DNA of 32,000 nt from an uncultured Chloroflexia bacterium (GTDB lineage: Bacteria > Chloroflexota > Ktedonobacteria > Ktedonobacterales > JADMIN01), in NCBI GenBank assembly GCA_963718915.1, contig CAVRAI010000014.1, positions 30,001-62,000 on the forward strand, written 5' to 3'. Under the pieces are notes generated by a model. The model made no database searches and was not told the origin of the DNA. It saw only the letters and a list, made by a program, of their open reading frames with translations. Shown piece after piece: positions 4,194 through 11,229 of the stretch. Made by a program: the position numbers and the translations under genes. How positions within the stretch are numbered: the stretch's first letter is position 1; every line of letters starts with the position of its first letter.

Positions 4194-4556
4194 TTACGAG
4201 TCGCGCGAGCGGCTATGCCCGTAGCGATCCTGCCGTCCGTCGAAATCGTTTGAGCTACCGCCGTAGGAATCGCGACGCCCACCGCGCCCGCCTCCCGAGG
4301 AACGCTCGGGACGTGGCTGCGCCTCGCTCACGCGAAGCGTCCGGTTGTCGATGGTTGTCCCATTGAGGGACGCGATGGCGTTCCGTGCGGCGGCGTCTTC
4401 GGTCATCTCGACGAAGCCAAAGCCCTTGCTCTGGCCGCTCTCGCGGTCCATGACGACCGTTGCCTCGCTGACCTCGCCGTAGGCGCTAAAAATCTGAGCA
4501 AGCTGCTCATTACCAATCGTGTAGGGCAGGTTGCCCACGTAAATTCGGATAGCCAT
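4194..4556 (-). CDS. RRM-type glycine/arginine-rich RNA-binding protein
   Basis: RNP2 IYVGNL, RNP1 KGFGFVEM, C-terminal SSGGGRGGRRDSYGG tail. GAGGAGGAGG SD upstream. Confidence 0.92.
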   Translation of the reverse strand: MAIRIYVGNLPYTIGNEQLAQIFSAYGEVSEATVVMDRESGQSKGFGFVEMTEDAAARNAIASLNGTTIDNRTLRVSEAQPRPERSSGGGRGGRRDSYGGSSNDFDGRQDRYGHSRSRDS

Positions 4557-6076: not shown

Positions 6077-6565
6077 ATGGGTGATCGCGAGATCAGAGGT
6101 GTCGAGATGACGACGTTTCCGCCAGACTATCCTTCACCATCCGGGACCGGGTCATATCGGCCAGATCGACCTGATCCGCAACAACCTCCCAGCTATACAG
6201 TGCCGTCGCCGCCTGGATACTCGCCGCCAGGCTTCTCCTCCCCACAGCCAGCGAGTTATCCGCCTCCTGGCTACGCTCCGACGGGACATGTTCCCGGTTA
6301 CGTGCCCGTTGGAATAGCTCCAATTCAGGCAAATTCCGGTTGGGCGACTGCCAGCTTTGTGTTTGGCATACTGGGCTTATGTACGGGAATAGGGGCGATA
6401 TTTGCTATTATCTTCGGGCATATCGCGCTGAACACGATCAACAACGCTGCGGGACAGCTGAAAGGAAAAGGTCTGGCAATGGCTGGACTCGTGATGGGCT
6501 ATCTCGTGGTCGCTGCGTTTATCGTGGCGCTGATTGGGTCAGCAATCACAAGCATGAACAGGTAG
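6077..6565 (+). CDS. Proline-rich N-terminus / DUF4190-like membrane protein
   Basis: PPxY-rich N-half, then GILGLCTGIGAIFAIIFGHIALNTI ... KGKGLAMAGLVMGYL, typical of DUF4190. Alternative start at ATG 6107. Confidence 0.7.
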   Translation: MGDREIRGVEMTTFPPDYPSPSGTGSYRPDRPDPQQPPSYTVPSPPGYSPPGFSSPQPASYPPPGYAPTGHVPGYVPVGIAPIQANSGWATASFVFGILGLCTGIGAIFAIIFGHIALNTINNAAGQLKGKGLAMAGLVMGYLVVAAFIVALIGSAITSMNR

Positions 6566-8145: not shown

Positions 8146-8445
8146 TCATAGGACGCCTCCCAGACTGCCTCCCACGTTCCCAGAGCGTGATGAAATCAGG
8201 AGCTCCGGAACTTGGGCGTCATACTGGGCGTAGAGGTCGACGCACTCCTGGTTGTTCTCAAGCACATCGCGAAGCGTCAAAATGTGCTGCGATGCGTCGT
8301 CCTTGTCCGGAGACTCCGAGCGTAGGACGACAACGTAGCTGCTGTCTAGAAAGAAGTTCGACGCAATGGCGAGATGGATGTGGTAGCCCGTCTGCCCCGC
8401 GCCTTCAAGGGCCTTTTCTACAAGCCAGAGATTCTCGATGCACAT
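8146..8445 (-). CDS. Hypothetical protein (99 aa)
   Basis: ATG with TAGGAG about 9 nt upstream. No family recognised. Confidence 0.55.
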   Translation of the reverse strand: MCIENLWLVEKALEGAGQTGYHIHLAIASNFFLDSSYVVVLRSESPDKDDASQHILTLRDVLENNQECVDLYAQYDAQVPELLISSRSGNVGGSLGGVL

Positions 8446-8610
8446 GTCAGTGGCTCCTATCAGCTCTCCATACCGATTCAGCCTGGATCAGCCCATGCAT
8501 AGGCCGCGATCTACTCCGAAATTAAAAGAAGCCGCTTCTTCGCTACAATCCGCATGACCTGTTGGAGCGTGCGGCGCGCCATCGCCTATAAGGCGCTGAT
8601 GGTACAGAAA

Positions 8611-8646
8611 TGCCTCGTCCCGTCCGCTTTCGCGGGGGACGAGGCA
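8611..8646 (-). terminator. Strong hairpin / terminator-attenuator-like element
   Basis: TGCCTCGTCCC ... GGGACGAGGCA 11-bp outer stem plus inner CCGC-TTTC-GCGG. Followed on the minus strand by TTTCTGT. Lies only ~50-80 nt downstream of the AAGGAG/ATG at 8693-8706. Confidence 0.45.
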
Positions 8647-8748
8647 CACACGTTGAACCTTTGCGCGTTGATGAACCGTCTTAGACATGGCATGGCATTA
8701 CTCCTTAACTACCTCACTGGATAGTCGTTAAAGGGAGTGGTTTTCTGT

Positions 8749-8778
8749 ATTGTACATTCTCGGTGATATGCTCGTCAA
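8749..8778 (-). promoter_or_regulatory. Sigma70-like promoter TTGACG-18-TACAAT (minus strand)
   Basis: Plus-strand CGTCAA at 8773-8778 and ATTGTA at 8749-8754. Divergent from the Xre-like gene. Confidence 0.45.
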
Positions 8779-8817
8779 TACCCAATGTGGTGTTCGGTTT
8801 TGTGACAAGTCTTGAGA

Positions 8818-8823
8818 TATAAT
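8818..8823 (+). promoter_or_regulatory. Consensus -10 box TATAAT upstream of the Xre-like gene (poor -35)
   Basis: TATAAT lies 86 nt upstream of ATG 8909. No good TTGACA-like hexamer at 16-18 nt spacing. Confidence 0.3.
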
Positions 8824-8846
8824 ACTATGTTCAAGACATTCACGCA

Positions 8847-8877
8847 AGCACGTACTTGTATGTGCTGCTATACTTGT
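8847..8877. promoter_or_regulatory. Candidate operator: imperfect dyad GCACGTA-CTTG-TATGTGC plus direct repeat TACTTGT x2
   Basis: Dyad at 8848-8865 (6 of 7 arm positions pair). TACTTGT at 8853-8859 and 8871-8877. Sits between the -10 box and the SD of the Xre-like gene. Confidence 0.3.
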
Positions 8878-8908
8878 CCCGTCAATTCTTGAAGTAGGAG
8901 AGGGCTTT

Positions 8909-9838
8909 ATGGGGCATCCGGTCAGTCCAGGTTCGGCTCACACAGCTGACGGCGCCGATGATGCTATGGTTTCATCAGTAGGCTCTCAGCTGCGGCTTGC
9001 TCGTCAACGGGCGCACATTTCGCTGCGATCTATGGCGGAGCGAACAGGCTATAGCAAAAGCCACTTGAGCAACGTAGAAACCGGCACTTTCCCAGTTACT
9101 GAGCAACTGTTGCAGCGCTATCAACGCGCGTTGGCCAACAACCAGAAAGATCAAGAAGATCAAGAAGAAATAGAAGGGAAAGAGGCGGCAATAATGAACA
9201 GCGCACAAAACCCGGAATGGGATGTTGTCATATCAGGCACGACCTCTGCTCTGGCGAAGAAAGACCGCTGGCGGCTCGAAACCGAGATTGACGAGCCGGT
9301 GGCTCGTGTCTGTAAGAGCATGGACTTACGTTGTTTTGTCCCACAACGATTCACCAATCGCCAAACCGAACTGCCGCCAGACCTGCCGGGAGAATACAAT
9401 ATCATTGCTCATTCTGGCGTACTCATTGCCTATGTTGGCGTCAATGATAGCCGCACAGGTCTTCAGTTAGGGTGGGCGCATGTCGCTCAGATTCCGATCA
9501 TTCTCCTCTATGAGTTGGGGAACAGTGAAATCGCGGATGAGTATCGGCAACAACAGCTTGCTATTCATGACACTATTTGCTTTCGCAATCAGGATGACCT
9601 CGTGAGCCAGTTATTCCAGACGTTATTCTGGCTCTTTAGTGAGCGGAACCTGGAGAAGGTGTCAAAGCAGAATACGTGGTCTTCTGAACTCACCGGCAAG
9701 AAGCAGCGCCAATTGAATGATCTGCGGCTGCGGGGGAAAAAGCTGACCGCAGCGCATCAGCCGATATCAGAGAAACAGTGGCTCAGTGAGAATCCTTTCT
9801 TCGCGCTCGAACATGAAGAACTTCAGCGCCAATCCTGA
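8909..9838 (+). CDS. Xre-family HTH regulator fused to a nucleoside-2-deoxyribosyltransferase/TIR-like alpha/beta domain
   Basis: GGAGAGGG SD. HTH LRLARQRAHISLRSMAERTGYSKSHLSNVETG (aa ~24-60), then acidic linker QKDQEDQEEIEGKE. aa ~103-245: DVVISG ... RCFVPQ ... NIIAHSGVLIAYVGVNDSRTGLQLGWAHVAQIPIILLYE, matching the NDT layout (D.GT..E.G.A ... P-hydrophobic strand) with Gln in place of the catalytic Glu. Confidence 0.75.
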   Translation: MGHPVSPGSAHTADGADDAMVSSVGSQLRLARQRAHISLRSMAERTGYSKSHLSNVETGTFPVTEQLLQRYQRALANNQKDQEDQEEIEGKEAAIMNSAQNPEWDVVISGTTSALAKKDRWRLETEIDEPVARVCKSMDLRCFVPQRFTNRQTELPPDLPGEYNIIAHSGVLIAYVGVNDSRTGLQLGWAHVAQIPIILLYELGNSEIADEYRQQQLAIHDTICFRNQDDLVSQLFQTLFWLFSERNLEKVSKQNTWSSELTGKKQRQLNDLRLRGKKLTAAHQPISEKQWLSENPFFALEHEELQRQS

Positions 9839-10017
9839 TGAATCCTGATACTGACGACCGACGCGACCTTGGAAACGAAAGGCCGCATAGCGCCGAGAAC
9901 GGTAACACCGCTTGTGAGAGACTTTCAGACGCCAGGGTGAGCTAGTACTTACGGCTCTCGCGCCTTGCCTGCATAGTGTGGCATAATTCAATAGATAGGT
10001 GACCTTGCTTGGGAACG

Positions 10018-10041
10018 ACCCATAGCTGATTTTCTATGGGT
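10018..10041 (+). promoter_or_regulatory. Hairpin ACCCATAG-N8-CTATGGGT between the two genes of the pair
   Basis: Perfect 8-bp stem, 18 nt upstream of ATG 10060. No T-tract follows. Confidence 0.3.
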
Positions 10042-10059
10042 TCCAGTGAGGAGGGCCGT

Positions 10060-11229
10060 ATGATCGCGCGCACGACACCACCTGATTGGCCTCGCAAGTG
10101 GGACGATGGGAACCCTCATAGAGGCGATGGCTCTGTCTATCTCCTTGCTATAGGTTCCGCGAGGGACGACATTATCGCCGTGGTGAGTCGTGCCTGCGGC
10201 GCATTGGGCGTTCCACTCGTCGTTGGTGAACATCGCGACATCGCCGGGATGCAATGTGCTAGCGCTCTCATTATCTACATGGATGTGAATGATGGACATT
10301 CCATAGCTGCTGCCGCGAGAGCGCAATTTGCGGGCCCACCGATGATCTTTCTCTATGAGAAGGACATACCGGACGTACCATACACTGATTTCCGGGCTGC
10401 GCTCGCACGTGATTTGGCTGACAATGCTGCCCTAGGCTCCATCGCGTTTGACGATCCCCTGGCCATTGCAGATGCCGTGTGCAGTGCGCTTGCTGACCTC
10501 TTTCGGGGTATACAGGTGCGTAACGCGCTTGTTGACCTCTATAAGCGTCTGCAACAGGCCAATATCCCGCGCGCGCAAGACTGGGCATGGGGCGTATGTG
10601 CTGGCGTGCGAAAGGTCCTCGATGATGAGGTCCTTCCTAATATTCCAGTGCTACCGTCAATCACGTTATCCAGCGATTGGATGCGGAGCCAATATGCGCT
10701 CGCCATGGGGACTCATCGCACGCTCGTAGACGGAGTAGACGCCAAGGTGGTGATTGCGTATGCGGACGCCAATGAAATCGTCAGCCATGCTGGCTACAGT
10801 ACTCTTCCAATCCCGGTTGAGAAGATCGTCAAAGCGTATGGCATAACCATCGAAAGGGTACATCTCGATGATCTCTCCGGTCGGATTAGAATGGAAGGAC
10901 CTACAGCCTACATCGAAGTGAATAAGGACGAACGCGCAACGCGCCAGAACTTTACCATCGCGCATGAGTTTGGTCACTTTATCATGCAGCATGGCCAGAA
11001 TTGCTTCCGCTCGAATTCAAGGGCATGGGTGTTGCGGGCAGATGAAGAAGCAGCGGACGCATTTGCGGCCGAGATGCTCATGCCAGAGACTCTCATCCGG
11101 GCGGAGTTCGACGAGCAGCAAACGCTCGGGCGCTCGATAAACGCGACGGTACATATCATGGCAGCGAAGTGCGGGGTAGGCGAACAAGCCATGAGGCGTC
11201 GGCTGCTATTCCTCTCTCTGATTTCTTAG
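10060..11229 (+). CDS. NDT/TIR-like alpha/beta domain fused to ImmA/IrrE-family (COG2856) Zn-metallopeptidase
   Basis: The track ORF starts at 10036, but ATG 10060 has GAGGAGGG 5 nt upstream. N-terminus SVYLLAIGS ... GVPLVVGE ... CASALIIYMDVNDGHSIAAAARAQFAGPPMIFLYE is paralogous to the preceding gene's domain. C-terminus: FTIAHEFGHFIMQH (HExxH) and EEAADAFAAEMLMPE, typical of ImmA/IrrE. Confidence 0.8.
   Translation: MIARTTPPDWPRKWDDGNPHRGDGSVYLLAIGSARDDIIAVVSRACGALGVPLVVGEHRDIAGMQCASALIIYMDVNDGHSIAAAARAQFAGPPMIFLYEKDIPDVPYTDFRAALARDLADNAALGSIAFDDPLAIADAVCSALADLFRGIQVRNALVDLYKRLQQANIPRAQDWAWGVCAGVRKVLDDEVLPNIPVLPSITLSSDWMRSQYALAMGTHRTLVDGVDAKVVIAYADANEIVSHAGYSTLPIPVEKIVKAYGITIERVHLDDLSGRIRMEGPTAYIEVNKDERATRQNFTIAHEFGHFIMQHGQNCFRSNSRAWVLRADEEAADAFAAEMLMPETLIRAEFDEQQTLGRSINATVHIMAAKCGVGEQAMRRRLLFLSLIS

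Follow-up and report, generated by a model that had tools for sequence, protein, structure and literature searches.

A predicted proteolytic repressor switch from a Ktedonobacterales genome with nucleoside 2-deoxyribosyltransferase-like domains on both partners

Protease–repressor pairs are a widespread way to switch on defense, mobile-element, and stress operons, and the activator of the protease is known for few of them. Among the closest described systems is CapH/CapP, the regulator pair of cyclic oligonucleotide-based antiphage signaling systems (CBASS) and other defense operons, in which CapP consists of a peptidase, a helix-turn-helix (HTH)-like linker, and a GAF domain at the C terminus and carries a zinc-binding cysteine switch loop after its HExxH motif (Lau et al., bioRxiv 10.1101/2022.04.27.489752). 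CapP responds to single-stranded DNA (ssDNA), which is bound by an inter-domain groove and the GAF region, and both CapH and DdrO, the repressor of the DdrO/IrrE pair of Deinococcus, need their C-terminal oligomerization domain. Here, we analyzed a gene pair of this general kind, genes A and B, in a stretch of 32,000 nucleotides (nt) from an uncultured soil bacterium of the Chloroflexia (contig CAVRAI010000014.1, positions 30,001 to 62,000; hereafter the window, in whose positions all gene coordinates are given), where the repressor and the protease both carry a domain resembling nucleoside 2-deoxyribosyltransferase (NDT).

As in CapH/CapP, a repressor with an Xre-type HTH and a C-terminal domain has an M78 HExxH peptidase as its partner, the two stand divergent to an operon of variable content, and constant regulators go with variable cargo across the family. 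CapH is about 100 residues long with a small helical oligomerization domain, whereas A carries an NDT-like module of about 200 residues. Unlike CapP, B has no GAF domain and has an N-terminal NDT-like module, and the A and B genes are 221 nt apart; in the region of the CapP cysteine switch loop, B has a Cys following its HExxH motif. ImmR/ImmA of ICEBs1 and DdrO/IrrE belong to the same two families, an HTH_XRE repressor cut by a COG2856/M78 peptidase, and would share the same logic. However, neither pair has an NDT-like domain on any partner, their repressor and protease share no domain, and no mobile-element or radiation-response regulon is in view here. We found no literature description that combines ImmA, IrrE, or COG2856 with deoxyribosyltransferase domains, so the architecture is undescribed as far as the literature search reached, as an initial annotation of the window had supposed, and no Pfam, NCBIfam, or PADLOC model covers it. 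What is new is the NDT pseudo-enzyme domains on both partners; the proteolytic switch itself is of a kind already known.

Two genes that share a paralogous module

Pfam matched an Xre-type HTH alone in A and Peptidase_M78 alone in B, which bears out the pair of Xre HTH repressor and ImmA/IrrE-type HExxH peptidase that had been annotated. The features of the two genes are as follows.

8909-9838, plus strand: gene A (open reading frame call), 309 residues, a predicted Xre-type repressor fused to a putative NDT-like pseudo-enzyme module
8981-9133, plus strand: HTH_31/HTH_3 DNA-binding domain, A residues 25-75 (Pfam HTH_31 1e-8, HTH_3 5e-6; AlphaFold2 helices 24-57)
9134-9217, plus strand: long helix and acidic linker QKDQEDQEEIEGKE, A residues 76-103 (AlphaFold2 helix 65-97, low confidence 85-101)
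9218-9679, plus strand: NDT-superfamily alpha/beta core, A residues 104-257, five strands alternating with helices (AlphaFold2 predicted local distance difference test score, pLDDT, about 70-83)
9446-9478, plus strand: active-site-like motif D180-S-R-T-G-L-Q186-L-G-W-A190, with Gln186 (codon 9464-9466) at the catalytic-Glu position
9680-9835, plus strand: helical tail, A residues 258-309, conserved in the family and holding W291
10060-11229, plus strand: gene B, 389 residues, an NDT-like module fused to a CapP/ImmA/IrrE-type metallopeptidase
10129-10704, plus strand: paralogue of the A module, B residues 24-215, an alpha/beta core to about residue 167 and then a helical tail with W175 and W207
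10840-11205, plus strand: Peptidase_M78 domain (Pfam 3e-18, residues 269-390 of the long form of B)
10963-10977, plus strand: HEFGH, the HExxH peptidase motif, at exactly the annotated position
11002-11004, plus strand: invariant Cys, candidate cysteine switch
11044-11046, plus strand: Glu, third zinc ligand, an invariant column

The protein collection holds exact copies of A (P0001) and B (P0006). Orthologues of A in loci L001, L002, and L004 are 55-63% identical to it, and those of B are 42-47% identical. The reading frame of B is also open from 10036; we dropped this start for 10060, the one already in use, on the strength of the homologue alignment and a GGAGG box.

A direct BLASTP comparison of A with B gave a weak match (E 0.007), and the 31-residue ungapped match that had been reported between them is real, with 13 identities rather than 12. 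When the orthologue alignments of A and B were compared by hhalign, the match had an E value of 2e-6 over about 150 columns, and the modules alone gave 2.7e-7 (score 51.4). As controls, the best of 30 column shuffles scored 21.4 (E 0.022) and a reversed alignment scored 12.5; the shuffle control ruled out a chance similarity. A hidden Markov model (HMM) of the A-type module picked up the N-terminal module in each of the five B proteins searched, with per-sequence E values of 5e-12 to 6.5e-4. It also found, at 1.3e-22, a standalone 211-residue protein in locus L013 that sits between an HTH-module gene and a peptidase gene, and this split form is the intermediate between the fused ones. The unit that A and B share exceeds the module of about 140 residues first delimited, because it includes a helical tail of about 50 residues with two conserved Trp: in A, W257 ends the core helix and W291 lies in the tail, which aligns with the B tail by both hhalign and HMM. 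The AlphaFold2 order of secondary-structure elements in the B module is that of A (module pLDDT 60-73). We conclude, from profile comparison, that the modules of A and B are homologous and paralogous to each other.

The module family is very rare: an exhaustive HMMER search with the A module returned only 32 cluster representatives, A and 31 relatives, among 1.84 billion proteins. Nineteen of these 32 members matched PF05014 (NDT), at best with 3.4e-8, and a 32-member profile searched against the Protein Data Bank (PDB) matched BlsM at 1.1e-10 and also 7m5h (an NDT), BcmB, MilB, and DNPH1/Rcl. A profile of the close clade gave only marginal BlsM/MilB matches (E 0.2-0.9), Pfam found nothing even at E 10 when the modules of A and of three B proteins were searched by themselves, PADLOC and PHROG had no match to the modules, and the B-module profile gave only chance matches to PDB sequences. 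By sequence profile, the window proteins are thus members of the NDT family only transitively, via their relatives, and the B module appears tied to NDT only through the A family. A Foldseek search of the PDB with the A model placed nearest BcmB (E 3.3e-4, template modeling (TM) score 0.71), MilB, DNPH1, and NDTs, with TM scores to the target of about 0.7. TIR structures ranked lower (E about 6e-3, TM about 0.5), a single one of the 32 relatives had a weak TIR_2 match (0.054), and none of them matched SLOG/LOG. The initial annotation had likened the module to NDT, TIR, and SLOG folds; the likeness to NDT held, and we rejected a TIR or SLOG identity because the NDT family ranks above. A BFVD search returned only separate phage NDT and HTH proteins and no match to the whole architecture.

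MilB, BcmB, BlsM, and DNPH1/Rcl (PF05014), the best sequence and structure matches of the module, share its fold and the motif xxT-x-x-[E]-[IL]-G-W-A ... P-I-[VI]-L-L-x-E. Compared with these enzymes, the nucleophile Glu, whose loss in both proteins had been read from the outset, is changed to Gln in A and to Ala in B; the Tyr after strand 1 is missing in A; a helical tail specific to the family, with two conserved Trp, extends the domain; and an HTH or a peptidase is joined to it. The A motif aligns to GTHVEIGWA of BlsM/MilB with Gln186 opposite the nucleophile Glu. No residue differs among the five A orthologues at D180 or from T183 to A190, a stretch that includes Gln186, while positions 181-182 vary (NH in P0003), and the most conserved stretch of A is this motif together with the next loop (204-219). 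At the Glu position, HTH-fused relatives mostly have Q, D, or H and standalone relatives mostly keep Glu. P0016 apparently contains two tandem copies of the module, the first with Glu and the second with Gln.

Taken by its residues, the module is predicted to be a catalytically dead member of the NDT superfamily, nearest to the branch of DNPH1 and the N-glycosidases of cytidine 5'-monophosphate (CMP) and hydroxymethyl-CMP (hmCMP). A change of Glu to Gln in the NDT family typically costs catalysis and not binding; E-to-Q variants have been deposited as mutants with bound ligand, and one of them, 8pqq, an E88Q NDT with nucleoside, is in the Foldseek list of A. Because the A module is placed at the site of an oligomerization or sensor domain, keeps an invariant pocket motif, and has undergone this Glu-to-Gln change, it would be a ligand-binding pseudo-enzyme.

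In the peptidase of B, residues H302, E303, H306, and E329 are invariant in the orthologue alignment, and all B orthologues carry the Cys (HGQxCFRS) nine residues past the second His; around this Cys the B model has pLDDT <50. The best PADLOC match of the peptidase is capP (1.9e-27); of the 242 positions of this model, only 9-151 are covered. Past its M78 match, B has 7 more residues. Since the capP match stops at model position 151 and B ends with its peptidase, the GAF part is absent from B. We therefore regard B as a predicted CapP-like catalytic core in which the N-terminal NDT-like module has replaced the sensor part.

The divergent operon and its leader

Genes X1 to X4 lie on the opposite strand, and the gap between X1 and A measures 463 nt. 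The features of the operon, of this gap, and of the spacer between A and B are as follows.

8146-8445, minus strand: X1, 99 residues, first gene of the operon, 42-54% identical in L001 and L004
7970-8149, minus strand: X2, 59 residues, 4-nt overlap with the X1 stop, weak conservation (E 5e-11 to 2e-4) in L001, L002, and L004
7492-7830, minus strand: X3, 112 residues, small membrane protein (two hydrophobic helices, basic tail), 57-65% identical in L001, L002, and L004
6843-7172, minus strand: X4, 109 residues, basic and helical-looking by eye, with which the conserved genes of the cassette end, identity of 39-45% in L001 and L004
8778-8749, minus strand: promoter-like site TTGACG-18-TACAAT (consensus scan, 10 of 12 positions)
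8606-8738, minus strand: structured 5' leader of the divergent operon, two hairpins
8737-8701, minus strand: leader hairpin with loop CAGUGA, lower stem CCUU...AAGG, and UUUAA bulge
8645-8612, minus strand: terminator hairpin, followed by a U run to 8606
8807-8839, no strand assigned: dyad AAGTCTTGA-15-TCAAGACAT around a TATAAT box, candidate operator
8847-8866, no strand assigned: dyad AGCACGTAC-TT-GTATGTGCT, candidate operator
9839-10059, plus strand: A–B spacer, 221 nt, with conserved blocks (alignment of five loci, motif search)
9977-9987, plus strand: conserved spacer block TGTGGCATAAT
10001-10014, plus strand: conserved spacer block GACCTTGCTTGGGA
10042-10054, plus strand: conserved spacer block TCCAGTGAGGAGG, which takes in the ribosome-binding site of B

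Overall, X1 to X4 are conserved at 36-65% identity. X1 had no Pfam, PHROG, or PADLOC match, no family was found for X4, and X3, a candidate effector, had only a faint PHROG match to holins (E 0.048). The minus-strand promoter that had been annotated was found again by the consensus scan, and the leader hairpin begins about 11 nt past its -10 box.

A search of 4.9 kb matched the leader to the whole Rfam model RF00515 (PyrR site) at 41.2 bits (E 0.0025), where the gathering score is 54; at the gathering threshold, Rfam had no match in the window. In L001, an RF00515 match of 29.4 bits lies at the same relative place. The stem of the hairpin shows compensatory changes in three of five pairs across three loci and its loop keeps C-N-G-N-G-A, and a terminator hairpin with U's is present in all four leaders. 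From this conservation, the divergent operon is predicted to have a conserved attenuator, and it is possible that the attenuator is a PyrR site. As in PyrR attenuators, an intrinsic terminator comes after a 5' hairpin that combines a CNGNGA hexaloop with a UUUAA bulge and a lower stem; however, the score here is below threshold and the genes downstream are not pyrimidine genes. A 66-residue reading frame at 8488-8688 on the minus strand, a gene in a public assembly, is probably no gene: none of the three orthologous loci conserves it, and it overlaps the leader terminator. It could be a leader peptide, with an AUG just after the hairpin kept in three loci.

The A–B spacer may hold a separate promoter or a regulated leader of B. 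The motif TCCAGTGAGG occurs in the leader hairpin (minus strand) and again in the spacer (plus strand) just before the B start, and it is likewise present in L004 (2943-2952).

Related loci and genomic surroundings

Three other independent assemblies (L001, L002, and L004) have the same cassette, in which A is followed after a spacer of about 210-220 nt by B and a minus-strand operon runs divergently. In every distinct locus whose flank was long enough (the window, L001, L002, L004, L010, L013, L016, and L018; counted as seven), the HTH-module protein is followed by an M78 peptidase, and a divergent operon is always present, with varying content. This survey agrees with the initial suggestion that the pair controls the adjacent minus-strand genes. 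In the distant systems, which are 25-39% identical to A, the regulators are kept and the cargo has changed, as listed here.

L010 and L018: cargo of other small proteins
L013: cargo including a YbjN-like gene
L016, 1192-9522: cargo of a thymidylate-synthase-family protein, a second M78 protein, a protein of the uracil-DNA glycosylase (UDG) superfamily, and a deoxynucleoside kinase

The L016 locus, whose relative keeps the catalytic Glu, looks like a mobile element with pyrimidine deoxynucleotide cargo, and a weak ArdC-N-like gene lies nearby. In L013 and L016, the second module is encoded on its own, by a gene immediately upstream of that for the peptidase. A sister clade with such a separate second module (L013 2921-4588; L014 114-1516) has an M78 peptidase with an extra C-terminal domain of about 160 residues that the capP model does not match. 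A small HExxH protein (183-212 residues; LHEYAHH, WHEYGHQ) is encoded between the regulators in three loci (L016 7216-7854, L018 3233-3784, L019 1307-1933); it belongs to no Pfam family, and the window lacks it. No relatives came up in pattern scans of GTDB species genomes, JGI metagenomes, and IMG/VR, and the distribution therefore rests on the protein collections only.

The tmRNA 3' end is a classic insertion site of genomic islands, and the cassettes of two relatives adjoin one (L010 9277-9442 and L018 1-29), in L010 together with a tRNA. Downstream of the cassette in L001 (6516-7744) are two genes of a kind typical of prophages, one for a Bro-N protein and one for a small HTH protein. The window itself has no integrase, relaxase, phage, or tRNA gene, as had been noted for integrase and phage genes, and its flanks are housekeeping genes (msrA, trmO). 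The island of about 50% GC that had been proposed amounts to a modest dip only (GC 0.52 in A, 0.55 in the cassette, 0.63 in the right flank). Neighboring housekeeping proteins share 90% clusters with proteins of Ktedonobacterales metagenome-assembled genomes (MAGs), and one B orthologue comes from a Ktedonobacterales MAG. Left of the cassette (4194-4556, minus strand) is a 120-residue protein with a eukaryote-type RNA recognition motif (RRM_1, 1.8e-23). A proline-rich protein with a C-terminal DUF4190 membrane domain (6077-6565, plus strand) lies between the cassette and the left flank and is not in the conserved cassette of the other loci.

A proposed switch and its alternatives

We propose that the locus encodes a nucleotide-responsive proteolytic switch with NDT pseudo-enzyme sensor domains, working by proteolytic derepression of the ImmR/ImmA, DdrO/IrrE, and CapH/CapP kind, and we consider the chances for and against this full model evenly balanced. 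The repressor A would bind the 463-nt divergent control region through its Xre HTH, would be held as an oligomer by its NDT-like domain, and would repress the minus-strand operon X1-X4 and probably also itself. B would be a CapP-like zinc peptidase held inactive, perhaps by its invariant Cys, and its N-terminal paralogue would dock it onto A as an NDT-type pseudo-dimer; docking via the NDT-type dimer interface is suggested by the fact that the protease carries this domain too. On signal, B would cut A, for which the linker of A, variable in the orthologue alignment, is the candidate region, and DNA binding would be lost and the operon expressed, with the small two-helix membrane protein X3 among its products. 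A transcription attenuator in the operon leader would form a second layer of control.

The NDT-like domains occupy the position that a GAF sensor has in CapP and IrrE, and the A domain keeps an almost invariant active-site-like pocket with Gln for the nucleophile Glu. Because this pocket motif is kept and the domains take the place of GAF, we presume that a nucleotide or nucleoside serves as the signal, with a ligand of the pyrimidine 5'-monophosphate type the likeliest. The structural relatives that act on CMP, hmCMP, and hydroxymethyl-dUMP (hmdUMP), the cargo of L016, and the PyrR-like leader together make a suggestive pyrimidine theme.

Several points weigh against this model. The pyrimidine theme hangs on one distant locus and one RNA match below threshold; the window leader scores below the Rfam threshold, and two of the four orthologous leaders, those of L004 and L002, have no PyrR score. 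The B module is more degenerate than the A module. The whole B model, folded from three sequences, is poor (pLDDT 48), and the fold search with this low-confidence model returned only generic flavodoxin-fold matches, with DNPH1 at TM 0.6-0.67. Genes X1 to X4 have no recognizable function or family in Pfam, PHROG, or PADLOC. The dyad at 8847-8866, which had been put forward as an operator, exists, but both dyads are within chance by shuffling (fractions 0.07-0.14), and operator sequences are not conserved between loci, the others having dyads of their own, read by eye. A and B are not tightly coupled, with a conserved 221-nt spacer between them. Finally, cleavage of A by B, pairing of the modules, and ligand binding, the last two already part of the initial annotation, are all steps that we infer.

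The alternative that competes best, although we hold it to be tentative and clearly behind the proposed model, keeps the same switch and makes the NDT-like modules purely protein–protein scaffolds that dimerize A and recruit B with no ligand, the signal being, for example, ssDNA or DNA damage, or metal or redox acting via the Cys. Neither protein has the catalytic Glu, A also lacks the strand-1 Tyr, the pocket residues of B are poorly conserved in the orthologue alignment, and the invariant Cys by the HExxH motif resembles the cysteine switch of the ssDNA-responsive CapP. The C-terminal oligomerization domain that CapH and DdrO need also fits a scaffold, as does the fact that NDT-family enzymes are obligate dimers or hexamers. 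However, the best-conserved part of A is its active-site-like motif with loop 204-219, which would be unusual for a mere interface, and B lacks the inter-domain groove and the GAF region that bind ssDNA in CapP.

A more specific form of ligand control seems unlikely to us. Here, the A and B domains would pair like the halves of an NDT/DNPH1 dimer around a pyrimidine nucleotide, which could be CMP, UMP, or a modified hm-pyrimidine nucleotide from phage infection, and its occupancy would decide whether the repressor is cleaved. Combined with a PyrR-type attenuator, this would amount to surveillance of the pyrimidine pool, with a membrane-active effector as the output in some loci and nucleotide-metabolism genes in others.

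Less probable again is that A and B are the immunity repressor and the anti-repressor of a mobile element, in the sense of ImmR/ImmA, and control excision or transfer of an island rather than a cellular response. The relatives next to tmRNA 3' ends in L010 and L018, the weak ArdC-N-like gene of L016, the Bro-N and HTH genes downstream in L001, and the GC content of the cassette below that of the right flank are all consistent with such an element, whereas the lack of mobility, phage, or tRNA genes and the housekeeping flanks of the window, the lack of relatives in IMG/VR, and a conserved unit of only about 4.4 kb of small genes argue against it. It is very improbable that the locus is a toxin–antitoxin-like or abortive module with the Xre–COG2856 pair itself as the couple, because the matches that favor it, a weak one to the NCBIfam 'spr1629 family repressor/antitoxin' (2e-9, far below the cut-off) and those to PADLOC RmrA, span the peptidase core only, the pair always stands opposite a separate operon, and neither protein has a toxin-like domain. 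We equally discount the idea that the A module is an active nucleotide N-glycosidase or transferase whose HTH is only autoregulatory, since, despite its place in the NDT superfamily nearest the CMP/hmCMP glycosidases and the Glu kept in some relatives, Gln186 replaces the nucleophile in five of five orthologues, such E-to-Q variants are deposited as ligand-bound mutants (8pqq), and the strand-1 Tyr is also lost.

The proposed switch is a small system that is directly testable, with two proteins, one intergenic region, and few candidate ligands. If nucleotide binding or pairing of the modules is true, it would give the protease–repressor class a new input logic. It would also be a conversion of enzyme to sensor in the NDT superfamily, whose relatives TIR and SLOG are central to immune signaling.

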